A stretch of 49,349 nt of DNA from IMG/VR virus record IMGVR_UViG_2529292718_000007. The stretch is one strand, 5' to 3'. Numbering within the stretch: position 1 is the stretch's first letter; each line of letters begins with the position of its first letter. The notes under the pieces are model-generated. The model saw nothing but the letters and a program-made list of their open reading frames with translations, was not told where the DNA came from and did no database searches. The position numbers were made by a program, and so were the translations under genes. This document shows, piece by piece, positions 10,198-37,898 of this stretch. This DNA is from a virus (lineage: Duplodnaviria > Heunggongvirae > Uroviricota > Caudoviricetes).

Positions 10198-11188
10198 AAC
10201 GCTTTTTGATGTTATATATCAGAATGTAAATATTACCGCTCATATGTCACCTGATGTTTTGTCAATGTCTTATACAGATAATGAAGATGGTCAGGTCGAT
10301 GATATTTCTATTATATTAAAAAATGATGATGGGAAATGGTCTGGAGACTGGACACCTAAAAAGGGTGATTTTATTGATTTGAGCTTTAAGCCTATAAATC
10401 AAATCGTCCTTGAGTGCGGGAAATTCCAGGTAGATGGCATAACTTGCTCTGGACCACCTTCTGTGGTTGAGGTAACTGCTGTTTCTGTTCCTGTTTCATC
10501 AGGCATTAGACGTGATTTAAAAAGTAATGCATGGGAAAAAACAACTCTTAAAGATATAGCAACTTCTATAGCTAAATTAGCTAACCTTGAACTGTTGTTT
10601 CTTATTGATGGTGATAGTAATCCATATTATGCGCGTGAAGATCAAATGGAGGAAAGCGATTTAAAATTTCTCCATCGACTTTGCCAGGATGAAGGGTTGT
10701 CGTTAAAGGTCACTGATAGCCAATTAATAATATTTGCTCAAGAGATGTTTGAGCAAAAAGATCCTATCGCTACGCTTACGTTAGGTATTGATGAGATAAT
10801 CAGATATAGCTTTAGCACACAATCTACAGATTTGTATAAAAGTTGCACGTGCAAATATCGCGTACCTAAAAAAAGAAAGTCGCTTTCGTATACTTGGGTA
10901 GATCCATCCGTAGAAGAAGGGTCGAATCTTAAGATAAGAAAACTGGTAGCTAATTTAGATGAAGCAAAACGTAAGGCAAAGGCTGCTTTGCGGCTTAAAA
11001 ATAGATATCAAAATACCGGATCTTTAGTATTGGTTGGAGACACCAGATTGGTAGCTGGTGTAACTATAAATCTGGAGGGATTCGGTTCATTTTCTGGAAA
11101 ATATCTTATATCGAAAGCTGTGCATTCAATTGGGACTAGTGGTTATACCACCTCGATTGATGTCCGAAGAGTAATTAATGGGTATTAA
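10187..11188 (+). CDS. Tail protein D-like (late control D family, baseplate hub)
   Basis: 333 aa; N-terminal pattern resembles P2 gpD/Mu P family; position. Confidence 0.65.
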   Translation: MLRKTLFDVIYQNVNITAHMSPDVLSMSYTDNEDGQVDDISIILKNDDGKWSGDWTPKKGDFIDLSFKPINQIVLECGKFQVDGITCSGPPSVVEVTAVSVPVSSGIRRDLKSNAWEKTTLKDIATSIAKLANLELLFLIDGDSNPYYAREDQMEESDLKFLHRLCQDEGLSLKVTDSQLIIFAQEMFEQKDPIATLTLGIDEIIRYSFSTQSTDLYKSCTCKYRVPKKRKSLSYTWVDPSVEEGSNLKIRKLVANLDEAKRKAKAALRLKNRYQNTGSLVLVGDTRLVAGVTINLEGFGSFSGKYLISKAVHSIGTSGYTTSIDVRRVINGY

Positions 11189-17164: not shown

Positions 17165-17781
17165 TGGCATTCAGAATGAGTGAACAATCACGTACCGTAA
17201 AAATTTATAACCTGCTGGCCGGAACTAATGAGTTTATTGGTGAAGGTGACGCATATATTCCACCTCATACAGGGCTGCCAGCTAATTCTACAGATATCGC
17301 CCCACCGGAAATTCCTGCTGGCTTTGTGGCAGTTTTTAACAGTGAAAATGAATCGTGGAATATTGTTGAAGACCATCGTGGTAAAACGGTCTATGACGTG
17401 GCGTCGGGGGACGCATTGTTTATTTCTGAACTCGGACCGCTACCAGAGAATGTCACCTGGTTGTCGCCAGCAGGGGAGTATCAGAAGTGGGACGGCGTAT
17501 CCTGGGTGAATGATGAGGAAGCAGAAAAACTGTTTCGGATACGGGAAGCGGAAGAGAAAAAGGCAAGGTTGATCCAGGAAGCAACAGATAACATCGCAAT
17601 TCTGCAGGATGCAGTTAATCTTGAAATAGCAACAAACGAGGAAAATTCACAACTGGATTCCTGGAGAAAATACAGAGTATTAGTGAGTAGAATTGACACC
17701 AGTACAGCTCCGGATATCGTATGGCCAGAGCTGATGAATCAGGGTTATGTTCGGGAGGACGAGCAGATAACTTCAGACTGA
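17164..17781 (+). CDS. Tail fibre assembly protein
   Basis: 205 aa; immediately follows fibre gene; Tfa-like N-terminus and acidic coiled C-terminus. Confidence 0.7.
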
Positions 17782-18308
17782 AATTTAGTGATGAATGTTG
17801 AATCATCAGGAATATCATGCAATACCAATGCATGAGCACCTATTGTGACATTGTTTCCTATACGCACTTTGCCACCAAGAATGGTGGCATTACAACCAAT
17901 GGTCACATTATGCCCTATAACAATATCCATATCATTAAATTCCCCGCGAAGTCCAATAGTTACTCCGGGCTTAATTGAACAATTTTCACCGATTGTTACT
18001 TTGTGACCGATAACAACACTGTTGAGATAAGAAATATCAAAGCCTTTCCCTATATTTACAGTTAAAGGGACTGTTACATTATATTTATCAAGAATGAAAC
18101 GTTCTATTTTTCCCGCAATCTTCCGACAGTATCCGCCTTTATCAAAAAGGTATTTGGCTATGCGCCACCAAAATAAATAACGAACCCTTCTATGTTTTAT
18201 TGCGCGAACAATTGCCTTTCGCCAGGAGAAAGGACGCTCGCTACCGATTACTTCATAGTGAATACAGTCTTTAAGTTCATTAATATTCATATCTTTATTA
18301 TTCAGCAT
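17745..18308 (-). CDS. Hexapeptide-repeat acetyltransferase (WcaB/CysE-like)
   Basis: 187 aa; tandem hexapeptide repeats ([21 protein letters not shown]...[14 protein letters not shown]); AT-rich; convergent with and overlapping 3' end of fibre-assembly gene. Confidence 0.75.
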
Positions 18309-18782
18309 AAGATAATCATGTGACCAATTATTGTAATAATTTTAATGGTATGTTTCTACTGGCTATCCAGCGTGTCTGATATCCAGTAACAAATCGTCAA
18401 CACGGGTGCAATCAAATGGTGAGTGTTAAGACTGACCACTTATTACCAGGTATGAGTGGCCAGCATTAAATCAGAACAGCCCTTTAACTGAACTGGCCGC
18501 GCTGTTAAGGGATGATGTCACCTTATCTTTGAAGCCGGACAGCATATTGCTGAACGATGAGTTTACCGCAGGTTTCTGGCTGGGAATCATTGACTGGAGT
18601 TAGGCCAGTAGTATGATGCTCGCAAAACGAGATCCAATTTAGATCCTTTTACTGGTGGATTATCGTTCGATCAGTGAGAGACTTCGTGCATGACCGAAAG
18701 TGTTGTGGTAGAGTTCTCTTAAAACCACGTAACGTGGTTATGATTGTGGGTGTCTGGTTGGAAAGTGACCAGATATGGAAAC

Positions 18783-18895
18783 AAAAAGCCCGCAGATAAA
18801 TCTGCGGGCTTCTTGCGACATCCACGGAAAACCAACAACTAACCATGGGCGCCTCGACAACTCCCATTATACGTTGGTTTTCCGTGGACGCAAGA
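18783..18895 (-). ncRNA. Candidate CopA-like antisense RNA opposite the repA leader
   Basis: Minus-strand hairpin GCCCGCAGA-ttta-TCTGCGGGC followed by TTTTT (about 18782-18810) and a 15 bp stem (CCACGGAAAACCAAC / GTTGGTTTTCCGTGG, 18812-18889) in the repA leader; promoter not located. Confidence 0.4.
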
Positions 18896-18903
18896 GCGAA
18901 CAT

Positions 18904-19752
18904 ATGGATAGACCAATGCCGTCTCTACGTTCAGCTTACGTTTGTAATTTGTCGCCGGAGTTCCAGCCTCCAAAGCACCATACGCACAAGCTGCCGCTGG
19001 TGTTATCTGATGCTTTACAGCGCATTAATGGGCGTGATCTTACGTGTGAGGTTGCGTTCTACGTTAATCAACCGTCAGAGCGGAAGCGCCGGATAAACGA
19101 GCATCGTCGTCGGGCGATTAATGCTGTGATCGCTGCGATTTTGCACCATGTAAACATCATTTCTAAGCGGGTTCTGGCCAGTGCTGAGGCGTTGGCTGAT
19201 TTTTGCGGCCTGTCTACCGTATCCGAAGCTGGGAACAAGTCTATAACGCGCTGTACAAGGGCGTTGTCGCAACTGAAAGCGTTAGGTTTTATTGATTATG
19301 AACGTCGCTGGGATCGGGTGAATAAACAGTATTGGCCAGCGAAAATAGAGATTCGTGATCAACTGCTGGAAACCGTTGGTATTACTGAACAAGCATGGAG
19401 ACGTGCGGTTAGCCAGAAACTTAATTACTTCAATGCGAAGAATAGCGAACGGCTTAAAAAAGCGATAACGGAGGCTGATTATAAGCGTATTGTTATTCAG
19501 GAGCAGATGGAGAATGTATGGCATCAGAGGAAGACGGCCAGAGAGATAAAGGCAAAACAGAAAGCAGCGGAGAGAGCTGCGCGTCTTGTTCGGGAAAAGG
19601 GAGAGGCCGAACTTCGTCATCAAATCACTAGAGAGGTTAGCCAGGAATTTGCTGATGGCATGTATCCTGGAGCTGACCTTGCATATTTACGATCCCTCGT
19701 TGAGCAGCGTTATAACAGGTTAAGAAAGACCTGGAAATCACTCCAACATTAA
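18904..19752 (+). CDS. repA: Plasmid replication initiator RepA (IncFII RepA1 family)
   Basis: Clear RepA1-like motifs (RRRAINAVIAAILHH, CGLSTVSEAGNKSITRCTRALSQLKALGFIDYE); track ORF begins at ATG 18775 but the leader hairpins lie inside that extension; alternative starts 18775/18916. Confidence 0.8.
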   Translation: MDRPMPSLRSAYVCNLSPEFQPPKHHTHKLPLVLSDALQRINGRDLTCEVAFYVNQPSERKRRINEHRRRAINAVIAAILHHVNIISKRVLASAEALADFCGLSTVSEAGNKSITRCTRALSQLKALGFIDYERRWDRVNKQYWPAKIEIRDQLLETVGITEQAWRRAVSQKLNYFNAKNSERLKKAITEADYKRIVIQEQMENVWHQRKTAREIKAKQKAAERAARLVREKGEAELRHQITREVSQEFADGMYPGADLAYLRSLVEQRYNRLRKTWKSLQH

Positions 19753-19759
19753 CCCACCT

Positions 19760-20250
19760 GAATGATGAATCCGGTTTTACCGGAGGATTATCTACGTCGC
19801 AATAAAATATCTGTTCAAAAAACAATCTAAATTAATTTTCTCTAAACCGGAACACAGCAAAAATATCGCCTTTACAGGCATCGGCTAATAAAGTTATCCA
19901 CAGTTTTGATATGTATATGCAAATGGTTTTTTATAATAGATGCACTAAACAAATAAATGCAAAATCACTTTCTTTTATTAAGACTTTCTTTATTTAACTT
20001 ACGCAGGCTTTGCCTGTGAATATGTTCGCCCTTGCAGCGAGCTAAAGCTCGCGCCGGTTCGAGTCGCTACGCTCAAATATACCTCCTCCGGCACTTGCCG
20101 GAGGCATGGAGCAGCCTGATCATCCTTTTCGAAACGGCGCGTTTCGAACTATACAAAATCAATTTATATAAGGCCGAAATAAGGCCTACGGCCGGGCTTT
20201 GCAGGAGGAAGGGGCGAGCCTTATCAATAAACGTCGAGAAATACGCACAC
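19760..20250. other. Putative replication origin region (oriR-like) downstream of repA
   Basis: Consensus DnaA box TTATCCACA at 19893..19901 in AT-rich DNA, followed by GC-rich segment with several hairpins/palindromes (CCTCCGGCacttGCCGGAGG, TTCGAAACGgcgcGTTTCGAA). Confidence 0.45.
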
Positions 20251-21208: not shown

Positions 21209-21562
21209 TTGAGCATGTGGACGGTACTTTTTAGCCAGCGATTTGACGACTGGCTAAATGAGCAAGAAGACGCTCTTCAGGAAAAGGTTTTGGCTGATTT
21301 GAAAAAGCTACAGGTTTACGGACCTGAGTTACCCAGGCCATATGCCGATACCGTAAAAGGTTCTCGGTACAAAAATATGAAAGAGCTTCGCGTTCAGTTT
21401 TCTGGCCGTCCGATAAGAGCCTTTTATGCGTTCGATCCGATTCGCCGGGCCATCGTTCTTTGTGCAGGAGACAAAAGTAACGATAAACGGTTTTATGAAA
21501 AACTGGTGCGTATAGCTGAGGATGAGTTTGCAGCACATCTGAACACACTGGAGAGCAAGTAA
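21209..21562 (+). CDS. higB: Type II toxin, RelE/ParE superfamily (HigB/Gp49-like)
   Basis: 117 aa; Gp49/HigB-like pattern (ELRVQFSGRPIRAFYAF, RRAIVLCAGDKSNDKRFYEKLVRIAEDEF); toxin-first order. Confidence 0.75.
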   Translation: MSMWTVLFSQRFDDWLNEQEDALQEKVLADLKKLQVYGPELPRPYADTVKGSRYKNMKELRVQFSGRPIRAFYAFDPIRRAIVLCAGDKSNDKRFYEKLVRIAEDEFAAHLNTLESK

Positions 21563-21861
21563 TGAGAACATTAGATGAGGTGATTGCCAGCCGTTCACCT
21601 GAAAGCCAGGCGCGAATTAAAGAAATGGCAGATGAGATGATTCTTGAGGTCGGCTTGCAGATGATGCGTGAAGAACTCCAGTTATCACAAAAACAGGTTG
21701 CTGAGGCGATGGGTATAAGCCAGCCAGCAGTAACAAAGCTGGAGCAGCGCGGAAATGATTTAAAGCTGGCGACATTAAAGCGTTACGTTGAAGCTATGGG
21801 AGGCAAATTAAGCCTGGATGTTGAGCTTCCCACAGGAAAACGAATAGCGTTTAACATCTGA
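21562..21861 (+). CDS. higA: Antitoxin, XRE-family HTH (HigA-like)
   Basis: 99 aa; HTH LSQKQVAEAMGISQPAVTKLEQ; ATGA overlap with toxin stop. Confidence 0.75.
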   Translation: MRTLDEVIASRSPESQARIKEMADEMILEVGLQMMREELQLSQKQVAEAMGISQPAVTKLEQRGNDLKLATLKRYVEAMGGKLSLDVELPTGKRIAFNI

Positions 21862-23347: not shown

Positions 23348-24490
23348 TTATGGTCTGCTTTTCTGTGCGAGCTTATCAGCACATGTTTTTATCAGCTCCT
23401 GTAGTGTCCTGGCTGGCAGGTTTGCATCCAGTACGCTGAGTATGCTGTTGTGATCTGCCTGGTCGACTACTTTGCCTGTCGGTGGTAATAGCTTGAGCTG
23501 AGGATTCAGGTTTTCGTCAAAGCTGATAAGTGCTCTGGCGTTTCTGAGCAGATCAAGAAGTAAGGCTGATATCACATTTTCCTGAGTCATTGCTGGCAGA
23601 TTTAGCGCCGCTTTGGTTTTCCCTGTTGCCTTGTCAAACTCCTTGATTAGTTCCTTCCTGTAGTTCGGTTCCGTTAATAGCCGATTATGCTCTGTTGCCG
23701 CGCGGATAATCGTTTTTTCCTGGTACAGTCGTTTAGCCAGATCGCGCTCGTACTGTGTTTTTAACACGCTGCTGATAGCGCTAAAGGCTTCAATGTAGGC
23801 CAGCTTGATATCCTTCACGCCTGGACCGTCGATACTTTCCATGAGCAAGGTAAATCCGTCTTTTGTCATGCGATAGATTGTTATTTCGCGGTCGCTTCCT
23901 TCCAACGGTCGTTGCTCTTTAAAGAAATGACGCGCCGCAGCTGTGCGAGGAATGCGTAACGCATCGATGGCCATAACGATGGAATTGTTTGTGGTGCTGA
24001 ATGCTTGGGCAACATCGGCTGAGGTTGTGAGTGGCTCGTTATTGCACACCTTAATGTAAAACATCGGTTTGGCGTTGAGCGTATCGACAACCTCACGAGC
24101 ATTGTTTGGCGAGACGGTTACGGTCGCGGCCGTTTGCGCGTTCTGGTTGAAGTAGCAGTCTTCCAGCCGTTCGAATACATCCCACGCCTGATCGGTTTCG
24201 AGCATTTTAGCGTGACGTGCAGCCCCGCGTTCGGTCCAGAGGATTAGTTTTCTAACGTTATTCGCGATGGTTTGAAAATCTCTTAAAGAGATTTTCAAAC
24301 TTTGGAGATCTGTACCTTTTACAATTATGAAATGTTTTCCTTCTGTAAACCGGGACTTATTACGGTGGTGATTTCTGTGAAGACATTCGACGCTACAGCC
24401 ATATAGTTTGGCAAGCAGCTCCGTGGTGATAACGGGGATCTGGTTATGCAGGATAGGCTGTAGGGTGTTAACGGTCGGAAGAGTTTTCAT
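23348..24490 (-). CDS. ant: Phage antirepressor / Rha-family regulatory protein
   Basis: 380 aa; two Rha/antirepressor-like segments (IPVITTELLAKLYGCSVECLHRN; PLTTSADVAQAFSTTNNSIVMAIDAL). Confidence 0.55.
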   Translation of the reverse strand: MKTLPTVNTLQPILHNQIPVITTELLAKLYGCSVECLHRNHHRNKSRFTEGKHFIIVKGTDLQSLKISLRDFQTIANNVRKLILWTERGAARHAKMLETDQAWDVFERLEDCYFNQNAQTAATVTVSPNNAREVVDTLNAKPMFYIKVCNNEPLTTSADVAQAFSTTNNSIVMAIDALRIPRTAAARHFFKEQRPLEGSDREITIYRMTKDGFTLLMESIDGPGVKDIKLAYIEAFSAISSVLKTQYERDLAKRLYQEKTIIRAATEHNRLLTEPNYRKELIKEFDKATGKTKAALNLPAMTQENVISALLLDLLRNARALISFDENLNPQLKLLPPTGKVVDQADHNSILSVLDANLPARTLQELIKTCADKLAQKSRP

Positions 24491-24678
24491 TTTGCACCTC
24501 CCATAACTACTTTGGTTACGAGGGAGATTTTTGCGTCAGAAACAGCGTTATCGTTGCTGGCGATGCGCATAGCTTCGCGCTCGATTATTTCAGCCAGGCG
24601 GAGTTTATCGGCGTATGAGGCTTTCTTGAGAAGGATCTTTACGAGGTTGACGTAATAGTCATGGGGTAGGTTTGTCAT
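24487..24678 (-). CDS. Small protein co-transcribed with antirepressor
   Basis: Track ORF 24487..24714; internal ATG at 24678 has GGAGA SD; stop overlaps ant start (ATGA). Confidence 0.45.
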   Translation of the reverse strand: MTNLPHDYYVNLVKILLKKASYADKLRLAEIIEREAMRIASNDNAVSDAKISLVTKVVMGGAK

Positions 24679-25431
24679 TGTGATATCTCCAGTATATGGA
24701 ACTATCACCGCCATTCGAGGCTAATCAAATGGTGGTGAGCCGTACAGGGTTAGCCTTACCGGACACAATGACGAACCGGCGCGGATTTCTCCGCCCCTGT
24801 ACGACCCACCATAATTTGGGCGTAACAGTGCTCTACGCATAAAAAAACCGCTAACGCGGTATGCGCCATCGTGTTATTCAGGAGGCTAATCCCGGCCGTA
24901 GATTTTGCTACGGCTCGGAAAGTGTCCACCAATGGCGCATTTATGTCAATACGGCGGGGTTTTAACAGAGACAACCACATAGCGTGGGTTTATTGGTAGG
25001 CAGAAACAAAAAAACCGCCCTATTGAGGACGGTTCTTTCGTGCTGATCGGATTCGCGGTCCTTTCAGCATTACGTTGTTGTATAAACAACCACGCAAGCA
25101 CAAGCAGCAAGTTAATTTTACCCAAAAGGTAATAATAGTCCACTATTATGCTTCAAAAAATTGTGGTTCTTGTTGTGCCTGCAAACTCACAGATTGTGGG
25201 TAGGTTACTGATTTTGTGAAAATAAACGAGTTTTTTCGTTTAATTTCTTTCCTATTACTAATCTTAAAATAATCGTAAAATACCTGTGGACCTTCCCGCC
25301 GATTCGCACCCGGGCACCGACTTTAGGGGAGGATTCTCCGTTGCCGTACATGCAAGCACAAGCAGCCGTGCTTGCTCTCGCGTTGTTTTCGTCGGTGGGG
25401 ATGCCGTGAAACGGCCTGTAAGGGCCATACA

Positions 25432-25554
25432 ATGAAAAAATACTGTATGTGTATTTTTATCGTTGTTACTGGGGCTTTGTTTACGCCACATGGGGAGGGT
25501 TGGAAGATTACTGATAACGCTCTGAATGTGACGATAAACATTAGCAGCAAGTAG
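25432..25554 (+). CDS. Small hydrophobic peptide (40 aa)
   Basis: MKKYCMCIFIVVTGALFTPHGEGWKITDNALNVTINISSK; followed by strong terminator. Confidence 0.3.
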   Translation: MKKYCMCIFIVVTGALFTPHGEGWKITDNALNVTINISSK

Positions 25555-25559
25555 CGATT

Positions 25560-25583
25560 AGGCCCCTTCGGGGGCCTTTTTTT
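25560..25583 (+). terminator. Rho-independent terminator
   Basis: AGGCCCCttcgGGGGCCT followed by TTTTTTT. Confidence 0.7.
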
Positions 25584-27276: not shown

Positions 27277-27368
27277 GCGTAGCCTCTTTTATACTTTTAC
27301 ATGTTGTCAAAACCACAAAATGTGGTTTTTTTGAGCGTAGAAATGCACGGCTTTCGCCGTGCTGTGTA

Positions 27369-28025
27369 TCATAACCAGTTGACAACACTAACTACGCGGC
27401 CAAGAACTTTATAACGCTTAAATTCCTCGTTATTCAGATGCTTAGTGTTCATTTCAGCATCCCTTTCGGTTGACAGCATAACAGCATTGTCACCCGGTAT
27501 GACTCTACAGTGCCTCAAAACAACCAGGCCATTTCTGTCTTCAAGGGCATAGATCCCCTCATGAATCTCTGTATCGTCTGTATTAATCAGGACTTGGGAG
27601 CCTGGGGATATTGTTGGTGACATTAACTCATCGTTGCTCTGGAGAACTGACAGAGACGATGGGTTGATGTTCTTGCTTCGTAGAATCTCCTGTTCTATCG
27701 CCAGCACTGGCTTTTCTCCGGCGTGCGATGCTATGTCATTTTTTATAGCTACAAGCCCAGGAATAACAGGAGCGTTAGTATTCTGGGGTGGGAACGGGTT
27801 ATCTGTTAAGCACGCGATATAAGGCGCTGATGCTTTCAGGGCGTGCGCGATTTTCTTGATGGCAGGTATAGATGGTTGTCTTAATCCGGCCTCATAGTTC
27901 TGCAAGGTGCTTAAGCCTATTCCAGTGACTTGCTGGAGATCTCCGGCAGTCATGCCGGATTGTTTCCGTAGAGTCTGAATGCGCAGACCTATTTCTTTCT
28001 TGATGTTCTCGTCGTTGCTTTTCAT
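27369..28025 (-). CDS. cI: CI-like repressor (N-terminal XRE HTH, C-terminal S24 LexA-like domain)
   Basis: 218 aa; HTH GLRIQTLRKQSGMTAGDLQQVTGIGLSTLQNYEAG; C-terminal S24-like fold (MSPTISPGSQVLIN...); divergent from Cro-like gene. Confidence 0.75.
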   Translation of the reverse strand: MKSNDENIKKEIGLRIQTLRKQSGMTAGDLQQVTGIGLSTLQNYEAGLRQPSIPAIKKIAHALKASAPYIACLTDNPFPPQNTNAPVIPGLVAIKNDIASHAGEKPVLAIEQEILRSKNINPSSLSVLQSNDELMSPTISPGSQVLINTDDTEIHEGIYALEDRNGLVVLRHCRVIPGDNAVMLSTERDAEMNTKHLNNEEFKRYKVLGRVVSVVNWL

Positions 28026-28199
28026 GTCTCATCAATCGTGAATGGTGGGTTATTTATACATTACCACATTTAGTGGTTTTCACATGGTAAGACGAGAGGT
28101 GGACCACAAATAGAAGGTTATTTTTTGTTTCGCCCATTGAAAAACTCACGATATGTGGTTTTAATACCACGTATCGTGGTTTTAACTGGAGTTCGTTAA
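28026..28199. promoter_or_regulatory. Immunity-region divergent promoter/operator
   Basis: Operator-like palindromes ACCACATTTAGTGGT (28063-28077) and ACCACGTATCGTGGT (28166-28180); rightward promoter TTGAAA (28137-28142)-17 bp-TTTAAT (28160-28165) abutting the second palindrome. Confidence 0.55.
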
Positions 28200-28694
28200 A
28201 TGACCTTTCAGGAGTGGGTTGACGAAAATGGAGGCCAAATTGGTGTTGCCAGAAAGTTTGGCTTTACGTCATCACTGATTGGTGCCTGGTATCGCTTCGA
28301 GAGATTCCCTCGTGCGGATAACCTGACGCTGCTGGTGGCGTATTCGGAAGGCCGGATTAACGTCCAGCAATGGGCGGCAGATTTTGCCGAACGTCAGCGC
28401 CAGCGTAGCGATGGCACATCGGTTCGGCAGAACAAGATCAAAGGGAATCTCCCTGTTAACTGCTTATCAAGGCTGAAAGCGGTTTTCTCTGAGCTGGGGA
28501 TGCCTGCGGAGCGTTGCAATCTACGCGGTCCGCGATTCATTGCTCGCTGGAAACACTCACACGTAACCGTTTCAGAGGTTCGTGATGCGATTACCGTGCT
28601 GGAGCTTAAGAATAAAGATTCCAGCGATATCGAGCTGATTCATAAGGAGATTAGCAACGCCCGGCGTTCAGCACTTGGGAGGCTTGAGGAATGA
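28200..28694 (+). CDS. Cro-like / early transcriptional regulator
   Basis: 164 aa; first rightward gene; N-terminal Cro-like segment GQIGVARKFGFTSSLIGAWYRF. Confidence 0.45.
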   Translation: MTFQEWVDENGGQIGVARKFGFTSSLIGAWYRFERFPRADNLTLLVAYSEGRINVQQWAADFAERQRQRSDGTSVRQNKIKGNLPVNCLSRLKAVFSELGMPAERCNLRGPRFIARWKHSHVTVSEVRDAITVLELKNKDSSDIELIHKEISNARRSALGRLEE

Positions 28695-37822: not shown

Positions 37823-37898
37823 GGCCCCTTAGCTCAGTGGTTAGAGCAGGCGACTCATAATCGCACGGTCATCGGTTCAAATCCGGTAGGGGCCACCA
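37823..37898 (+). tRNA. tRNA with CAU anticodon (Met or lysidine-type Ile2)
   Basis: 76 nt cloverleaf: acceptor GGCCCCT/AGGGGCC, D-stem GCTC/GAGC, anticodon loop CTCATAA, T-arm ATCGG-TTCAAAT-CCGGT, 3' ACCA. Confidence 0.85.

Follow-up and report, generated by a model that had tools for sequence, protein, structure and literature searches.

A putative copy of the phage immunity operator at repA of an Escherichia coli phage-plasmid, and its probable role in tying plasmid replication to the immunity switch

The subject of this paper is a circular Escherichia coli phage-plasmid of about 49 kb, represented by IMG/VR record IMGVR_UViG_2529292718_000007; the whole stretch of 49,349 nucleotides that was analysed is called the window below. 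A 17-bp palindrome, AACCACGTAACGTGGTT, lies at 18723-18739, 5' of the plasmid replication initiator gene repA, and appears to be a true additional copy of the operator found in the phage's own immunity region. The repressor that keeps the phage dormant thus probably also throttles plasmid replication. In what we consider the best reading of the sequence, this CI-like repressor stands in for CopB, the repressor of a repA promoter in plasmid R1, as the transcriptional repressor of repA, which would tie copy number and establishment, and probably lytic replication as well, to the immunity switch.

The immunity operator and its copy upstream of repA

The operator sites in the window are as follows:
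18723-18739, AACCACGTAACGTGGTT: O_rep, 5' of the repA leader; found with the weight matrix, with invariant arms and a centre of TAA, TTG or ATG in 11 distinct relatives
24973-24989, AACCACATAGCGTGGGT: sixth site, 5' of the antirepressor operon; score 18.4, against a 99th percentile of 17.2 in the null
27311-27327, AACCACAAAATGTGGTT: par-side operator, between the cI terminator hairpin and the orf124-parA-orf82 operon; kept in all clades
28062-28078, TACCACATTTAGTGGTT: O3, 37 bp 5' of the cI start codon; found by motif scan and weight matrix
28104-28120: half-conserved fourth immunity-region site
28144-28160, ACTCACGATATGTGGTT: OR2, exactly filling the 17-bp spacer of the rightward promoter PR; found by motif scan and weight matrix
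28165-28181, TACCACGTATCGTGGTT: OR1, over the -10 element and start site of PR, 21 bp centre-to-centre from OR2

The core ACCAC-N5-GTGGT occurs at six places in the window, beginning at 18723, 24973, 27311, 28062, 28144 and 28165. When up to two mismatches are allowed, AACCACRNNNYGTGGTT has 7 matches against 0.43 expected, a number reached by none of 100 shuffles. With at most one mismatch, ACCAC-Nx-GTGGT is enriched at x = 5 alone, where there are 8 matches against 0-4 at the other spacings from x = 1 to 11. An earlier note on this DNA had reported the palindromes at 18723-18739, 27311-27327 and 28165-28181 (the last as its core, 28166-28180), and all of them are present. Its list was correct for the sites that it named and missed OR2 and the site at 24973-24989. 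What it took for a 5-spaced variant, at 28063-28077, is spaced like all the other sites (ACCAC-N5-GTGGT) and departs from them only at positions 7 and 11, where an A stands in place of R and another in place of Y.

A symmetric weight matrix was trained only on four immunity-region sites (27311, 28062, 28144 and 28165), with O_rep excluded from the training. For the null, 300 Markov shuffles were scanned and the top score of each was kept. These maxima have a mean of 13.0, a 99th percentile of 17.2 and a highest value of 19.1. O_rep scores 23.2 bits, the second best value in the window, and cannot be told apart statistically from the best operators of the immunity region. The scan, which the earlier note had proposed, therefore places the palindrome above chance level. 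Two other candidate operators were rejected. The site at 10452 has a score of 14.2, within the shuffle null, lies inside a tail gene and is absent from relatives; ACTCACAGATTGTGGGT at 25185-25201 scores 13.8, again within the null. The latter overlaps a minus-strand promoter-like sequence, TTCACA-16-CACAAT, from which a transcript of about 170 nt would end at a terminator near 25005-25030.

Relatives were drawn from PLSDB, INPHARED, IMG/VR and a set of 5.8 billion proteins with contig look-ups. The E. coli plasmid p853EC2 (NZ_CP040921) is 100% identical to the window in the repA and immunity regions; it carries an extra 1.3-kb IS2 insertion, and the two are therefore not the same element. Some 60-70 further plasmids of 44-58 kb, including the 48.5-kb plasmid of the reference strain E. 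coli ATCC 25922 (NZ_CP009073), match the window at 97-99%. The Yersinia phages vB_YpM_39, vB_YpM_41 and vB_YpM_44 match it at about 98%, from which it follows that the family forms virions; phages of the family had been isolated on Yersinia pestis. The family is present in 71 of 5,426 complete E. coli genomes, and is plasmid-borne every time. More distantly, three Salmonella plasmids in PLSDB have 76% identity in the repA region and 69% in the immunity region, and CI homologues at 60-66% identity were found in the large protein collection in Citrobacter freundii, C. amalonaticus, Klebsiella aerogenes, Yokenella regensburgei and Salmonella. The contigs of all these homologues have the same gene order, with an IncFII repA 6-9 kb from cI. 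In a tblastn search of the phage collection, RepA matches only the three Yersinia phages, and CI matches the same three together with sequences of at most 30% identity, mostly from Vibrio phages. Membership of the SSU5/pSLy3 supergroup was rejected because the nearest records are the 44-58-kb plasmids and the Yersinia phages; pSLy3 itself is placed in the SSU5 supercommunity in the literature, and belongs to a lineage other than that of the window.

The immunity-trained matrix was then applied to 24 sequences, comprising the window and 23 loci. Scores of at least 15 occur only 5' of repA, just 3' of cI, at O3, OR2 and OR1, and, in most clades, at a site 5' of the ant/Rha operon. In all clades of the family O_rep occupies the same position. 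Across clades, and over five positional classes of site, the core ACCAC/GTGGT varies in 2 of 50 columns, while variation is found in 14 of the 15 columns of the central 3 bp, 7 of the 10 columns at positions 7 and 11, and 66 of the 120 columns of the 12-bp flanks. The par-side site shows a symmetric change of A..T to G..C among clades. Invariant arms around a freely varying centre are the mark that a symmetric protein dimer leaves on its binding site, and not the mark of an RNA hairpin or of coding constraint; the set of sites thus has the evolutionary footprint expected of a dimeric helix-turn-helix operator.

The protein most likely to read these sites is encoded in the immunity region, the main features of which are:
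27369-28025, minus strand: cI-like repressor of 218 amino acids, with an N-terminal XRE-type helix-turn-helix and a weakly S24-like C-terminal domain
28137-28165, plus strand: rightward promoter PR, TTGAAA-17-TTTAAT, read from the sequence (TTGAAA 28137-28142, TTTAAT 28160-28165)
28200-28694, plus strand: first gene of the rightward operon, at the cro position, encoding 164 amino acids (PHROG 7452, unknown function)

The CI-like protein belongs to PHROG 4 (transcriptional repressor) and matches Pfam HTH_3 with an E-value of 4.5e-11. Its N-terminal 75 residues, which hold the helix-turn-helix, are nearly invariant across clades while the remainder diverges, and the unchanged operator arms agree with this. 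It probably binds as a dimer to the 17-bp operators, with the consensus aACCAC(R)-N3-(Y)GTGGTt. The match to Pfam Peptidase_S24 (0.0018) is under the family cut-off, no S24 match was found in the PDB, and in an alignment made by eye the GDSM nucleophile motif and the catalytic Lys of S24 seem to be replaced by invariant DELMxPT and LRHCR. We therefore rejected an autocleaving S24 repressor, and the protein is probably non-cleavable. Together with an antirepressor module resembling immI of phage P1 (see below), the apparent lack of the catalytic motifs suggests, by analogy with N15 and phage P1, that the phage-plasmid is induced through an antirepressor.

Three to four operators overlap the divergent cI and rightward promoters, and the centre-to-centre distances between the immunity-region sites, 42, 40 and 21 bp, are whole helical turns. 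From its sequence, the arrangement of O3, OR2 and OR1 (28062-28181) reads as the layout of a CI/Cro switch. The geometry of PR is the same in a Salmonella relative, as TTGATA-17-TTTATA. A 24-codon open reading frame (ORF) at 28129-28203 on the plus strand has a TTG start after GAAGGT, spans OR2 and OR1, and ends in a TAA that overlaps the ATG of the first rightward gene; its 20-codon Salmonella counterpart ends in the same way. It is probably spurious because it lies upstream of the PR start site.

All the available computational evidence supports one sequence-specific dimeric regulator for the immunity region and the repA control region. This had been the central suggestion of the earlier note, and it is supported by the score of O_rep, its position in every clade, its invariant arms and free centre, and the near-invariant helix-turn-helix of CI.

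The repA control region and a model for its repression

The features of the replicon are listed below:
18590-18617, plus strand: promoter-like sequence P1, TTGACT-16-TATGAT, with 10/12 consensus matches, about 105 bp before O_rep
18706-18714, plus strand: predicted extended -10 promoter P2, TGgTAGAGT, invariant in 11 distinct sequences, whose function as a promoter we infer
about 18780-18860, minus strand: predicted CopA-like antisense RNA of about 80 nt, a stem-loop with a hypervariable loop followed by a terminator hairpin and U-run
18866-18893, minus strand: predicted promoter of the antisense RNA, TTGCGT-16-TATAAT (TTGCGT 18893-18888, perfect TATAAT 18871-18866), in a region invariant across clades
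18916-19752, plus strand: repA, of the IncFII RepA family (PF02387, E = 1.2e-43, 272/275 profile positions)
19790-19990, 3' of repA: candidate oriR, with a DnaA box and A+T-rich stretches

The position of O_rep relative to repA depends on the start codon that is chosen. In the E. coli members, the RefSeq start is at 18775, within the terminator hairpin of the predicted antisense RNA, and gives a protein of 325 amino acids, in which the PF02387 match begins at residue 52. Alignment of the clades places the conserved start at the ATG at 18916, giving 278 amino acids, and the Salmonella homologue is annotated at 277; the 5' extension from 18775 is probably an annotation artefact. The statement of the earlier note that the palindrome is directly upstream of repA thus holds for the long annotated ORF, but not for the conserved start, from which O_rep is separated by a leader of about 175 nt with two strong hairpins, under predicted antisense-RNA control. 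RepA is only distantly related to its plasmid counterparts: the closest of them, beyond the family itself, have 37% identity.

The antisense RNA region folds with a z-score of -10. The terminator hairpin, GCCCGCAG-ATTTAT-CTGCGGGC followed by a T-run, lies about 80 nt 3' of the antisense promoter, and its stem shows one compensatory change from A-U to G-C across clades. No match to the Rfam CopA family was found, even at E-values up to 10. The loop of the first stem is wholly different between clades (GTTAGTTGTTGGTTTTCC, GGATATAGGATTCT and ATTTTTTTTGGATTTCT) with both flanks invariant, in a comparison of the window with loci L003, L013-L016 and L020-L022; it looks like an incompatibility determinant in the course of diversifying. 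For a tap leader peptide, the only candidate ATG, at 18845, is in another frame that is open for 83 codons, and no short ORF ends at the repA start.

Downstream of repA, a perfect DnaA box, TTATCCACA, is found at 19894-19902, 140 bp past the stop codon, and is followed by a stretch of 76% A+T; the 50-bp blocks that start at 19790, 19890 and 19940 have 76-78% A+T. This is the likely oriR, in an IncFII-like arrangement. The replicon has the IncFII_repA-family RepA and a likely 3' origin with DnaA box, like IncFII replicons, and differs from them in its lack of copB: the interval from hin to repA holds no conserved ORF. One candidate for a leader or copB-like ORF, at 18691-18723 (ATG at 18691, 10 codons), was rejected because it is not kept in C. 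amalonaticus-type sequences. The Hin-type invertase gene lies directly 5' of repA in most family members; in the window its place is taken by a hexapeptide-repeat acetyltransferase gene on the opposite strand (17745-18308, minus), and homology with other members resumes at 18562. A toxin-antitoxin pair of the HigB2/HigA type lies 3' of the replicon (21209-21861, plus strand).

P1 is the only strong consensus promoter 5' of repA. It is kept in most clades as TTGACT/TATCAT, and its -35 has been lost by rearrangement in one locus (L020). The sequence TG(G/A)TAGAGT lies in a conserved block 8 bp 5' of O_rep and is invariant in 11/11 distinct sequences, including that of L020. Read as an extended -10, it gives a start near 18721, so that O_rep would occupy about +2 to +18 of the predicted P2, a classical repression position. 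A second sequence, TATGAT at 18739-18744, abuts O_rep; it was rejected as the main -10, as it decays to TATGAA or TAAGAA in other clades and has no -35. In the interval of about 100 bp between P1 and O_rep there are three GATC sites (18631, 18642 and 18669), and closely spaced GATC pairs are kept between promoter and operator in all clades despite divergence. The cluster may provide a Dam/SeqA input into repA control.

What the analysis shows is the motif and how far it exceeds chance, the conservation of its positions and the footprint that it leaves, and the anatomy of the replicon. On this basis we propose the following model, to which we give a probability of about 0.6. CI bound at about +2 to +18 of P2 (TGnTAGAGT) would block initiation there and hold P2 off in the lysogen, and the same bound protein may obstruct transcripts arriving from P1. 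RepA synthesis would thus be held low in the lysogen, with the antisense RNA fine-tuning it and setting the steady-state copy number. Where CI is absent, either just after infection of a new cell or after its inactivation by the antirepressor, repA transcription and copy number would rise, and the resulting burst of RepA would probably feed lytic replication too. The parts of the model that we infer are which protein binds, whether P2 is active and where it starts, which way and how strongly repA is affected, and whether lytic growth uses RepA. The last of these is suggested by the early operon, in which only a Ref nuclease, DUF1064, DUF3560 and proteins of unknown function were found and no further initiator, helicase or loader was recognised; because no other initiator is recognisable in the element, RepA and oriR probably also form the lytic replicon.

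A natural circular deletion derivative, pCREC-544_3 (L023, NZ_CP024829.1; 32,182 bp), bears on the direction of control. The par operon (orf124-parA) is missing from it, as are cI, cro, the lysis genes and the early operon; repA is still there, preceded by P1, P2 and the operator in intact form, and so are the ant module and the structural genes. Since this plasmid has kept repA and the operator without cI, CI appears, from a single record, to be dispensable for replication and not to be required as an activator, as would be expected of a repressor.

Operator copies beside the partition and antirepressor operons

The par-side site lies beyond the cI terminator hairpin (27345-27362), whose loop varies between clades. 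The site and the -35 region of a weak promoter for the orf124-parA-orf82 operon probably overlap. No hexamer pair is conserved there across clades, and a defined promoter was therefore rejected. The site could also be an OL-like looping partner.

The sixth site is 5' of the antirepressor module, which is on the minus strand:
23348-24914, minus strand: antirepressor module as a whole
24841-24914: isrK RNA
24728-24816: C4 RNA
24487-24714: icd-like ORF
23348-24490: Ant, the antirepressor

The two RNAs were identified with Rfam (isrK 68 bits, C4 70.8 bits) and stand in tandem 5' of the icd-like ORF. A C4 antisense RNA ahead of an icd-like ORF and an ant gene is the arrangement of immI in phage P1, and the module also resembles the anti-immunity region immA of N15. 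Ant, of 380 amino acids, matches Pfam ORF6N and Phage_pRha and the anti-repressor families of PHROG. The predicted isrK promoter consists of TTGACA (24949-24944), a 17-bp spacer and GACACT, and its start at 24914 agrees with the Rfam match. The isrK/C4 pair is also present in the Salmonella plasmid pAR-0407-1 (L004, 21135-21320), and other clades carry AATCACGCATTGTGGTT 5' of their Rha/ant operon.

Between the partition genes and the antirepressor operon there is a match to the ryfA RNA family (25286-25582, plus strand; 141.8 bits, with a gathering score of 80), in an interval that has a different sequence in other clades. The ryfA loci of enterobacteria encode type I toxin-antitoxin pairs. 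The late region contains a tRNA gene (37823-37895, plus strand; 67 bits).

Alternative explanations, known systems and implications

Several observations weigh against repression of P2 by CI. The -10 hexamer of P2 matches the consensus at only 4/6 positions and there is no convincing -35; the only strong consensus promoter, P1, lies about 105 bp upstream, so that O_rep may act as a roadblock only, or weakly. There is a single operator at repA, compared with two in N15. The antirepressor-side site is centred about 67 bp 5' of the predicted isrK start, not over the promoter and not at a classical repression position, and it is absent from one clade, that of Salmonella Weltevreden/Concord and C. 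freundii; not every copy need be a repressor site. All the clades reachable in the databases share one operator specificity, so that co-change of repressor and operator could not be seen. Finally, a literature search located no binding, start-site or expression data for this family, and no paper on its regulation.

The first of these points leads to the alternative that CI binds O_rep without any promoter overlap and acts as a transcriptional roadblock, or weak attenuator, for transcripts that start at P1 about 105 bp upstream. This agrees with P1, at 10/12, being the sole strong consensus promoter 5' of repA and being kept in most clades, and with P2 having no -35. We nevertheless regard it as unlikely. 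The block just 5' of O_rep, including TGnTAGAGT, is better conserved than the interval between P1 and the operator and survives in L020, where the P1 -35 is missing; moreover, single-dimer roadblocks are usually leaky.

A second alternative keeps the operator and changes the protein: the regulator at repA might be the 164-residue protein at the cro position, or another protein encoded by the element, and repA would then be modulated in lytic development and not in the lysogen. In lambdoid phages, Cro shares the operators of CI, and the 164-residue protein is conserved across the family, with its N-terminal 70 residues predicted to be helical. It has, however, no detectable helix-turn-helix family match: no Pfam match was found for the whole protein or for its N-terminal 70 residues, and the AlphaFold model is all-helical with a mean predicted local distance difference test (pLDDT) score of 56, which is low and too poor for a fold search. 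Its identity as Cro is therefore not supported. Furthermore, the Cro proteins of N15 and phiKO2 bind OR3 only, and not the repA operators (PMC4997575, PMC4488713), and in the family studied here nothing is conserved in closer step with the operator arms than the helix-turn-helix of CI. This alternative is improbable.

It is also conceivable, with a much smaller likelihood, that CI at O_rep has an architectural role and exerts no control over repA transcription, for example by looping or pairing with the immunity or par-side operators or by plasmid handcuffing. Single operators are indeed found in isolation, at distances of 0.75-9 kb from the main cluster, CI of lambda forms a loop between OL and OR, and possible CB oligomers have been mentioned for phiKO2; against this, O_rep directly follows a -10-like element that is conserved, at the place where R1 has its repressor-controlled promoter, and architecture alone hardly accounts for such a position. 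Lastly, a chance or hitch-hiking repeat, or a mere RNA hairpin that binds no protein, is already largely refuted: short palindromes are common and the par-side copy, being followed by a T-run, could double as a weak terminator, but O_rep outscores all 300 shuffles, is not followed by a T-run, and combines invariant arms with a centre that varies freely across clades, the opposite of what loop closing or coding constraint would predict.

We therefore return to repression of repA by CI, for which there are precedents in several systems. The closest in mechanism is that of N15 and phiKO2, where the CB repressor binds three OR and two OL operators, the latter overlapping the repA promoter, and represses repA, which lowers the copy number of the prophage (PMC4997575, PMC4488713). 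As in these phages, the window has operators of the immunity type both in the repressor-cro switch region and at the replication initiator gene, a repressor that apparently lacks the Ser and Lys needed for self-cleavage, and an antirepressor module under RNA control. The differences are considerable. N15 and phiKO2 are linear phage-plasmids, whereas the window is a circular genome. The RepA of the window is of the IncFII family (PF02387) and not of the N15 type; a single operator 8.6 kb from cI takes the place of the two adjacent to cB in N15; and the operators are 17-bp ACCAC-N5-GTGGT in place of 16-bp TA-N10-TA. In addition, a predicted antisense RNA layer lies between operator and repA, and the regulon of the window apparently extends to the partition and antirepressor operons. 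Pfam and the tblastn search of the phage collection revealed no homology of the RepA/immB region to N15 or phiKO2. The resemblance, as far as sequence can tell, is thus one of mechanism and not of family membership.

The basic IncFII replicon of R1 and R100 comprises copB, the CopB-repressed repA promoter, the CopA antisense RNA/CopT, tap, repA and oriR. In plasmid R1, repA has two promoters: transcripts from the upstream one pass through copB, and the second is held down by CopB, an auxiliary repressor; according to Nordstrom's work on R1, loss of CopB reportedly activates this second promoter and rescues a low copy number. The window resembles the IncFII plasmids R1 and R100 in its RepA family, in the predicted antisense RNA with its own promoter and terminator against the repA leader, and in the candidate 3' origin with a DnaA box. 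It also shares with R1 two tandem (predicted) repA promoters, the downstream one at a repressor site, with the phage operator standing where R1 has its CopB-controlled promoter. Unlike R1 and R100, it has no copB, an immunity operator at the repressor site, no Rfam CopA match and no convincing tap.

Phage P1 has dispersed C1 operators, including Op51 at immI (c4-icd-ant) and Op53 at the lytic replicon repL. The window likewise has single operators of one repressor type at several operons, and a module of C4 RNA, icd-like ORF and antirepressor which, in most clades of the family, has such an operator 5' of it. The operators of C1 are, however, 17-mers without symmetry, and the protein itself has no relation to the XRE/CI proteins. 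The plasmid replicon of phage P1 (repA and iterons) is not controlled by C1, only its separate lytic replicon is; in the window, one replicon appears to serve both roles. With lambda, the window has in common 17-bp operators of two-fold symmetry, arranged in tandem over divergent promoters with whole-turn spacing, and an extra distal operator beyond the repressor gene; its half-site TACCACG resembles the TATCACC of lambda. It differs from lambda in having a repressor without a recognisable catalytic S24 motif and operators that extend to plasmid maintenance genes.

The principle is known from N15 and phiKO2, and a specialist in N15 or phage P1 would not be much surprised by it. What would be new is its occurrence with an IncFII-family replicon that has a predicted antisense RNA and no CopB, through a single distal operator. 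A wider proposal, which is tentative and which we hold to be rather less probable than not, is that an IncFII-type replicon lost CopB and that its repA promoter was captured by the phage CI. One RepA/oriR would then serve both low-copy maintenance, with CI present and the antisense RNA fine-tuning, and lytic or establishment replication, with CI absent; CI would also gate the partition and antirepressor operons, forming a single-protein regulon for immunity, replication, segregation and induction.

This family of phage-plasmids is common, with relatives in Salmonella, Citrobacter, Klebsiella and Yokenella, yet its biology is essentially undescribed. The defined operator motif and the map of the putative regulon can be used in annotating its elements. 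If repA is indeed repressed by CI, the family would provide a concrete model for the coupling of phage-plasmid copy number to the lysis-lysogeny decision, and a second, independent evolutionary solution besides that of N15, on a different type of replicon. It would also explain how an IncFII-like replicon manages without CopB.

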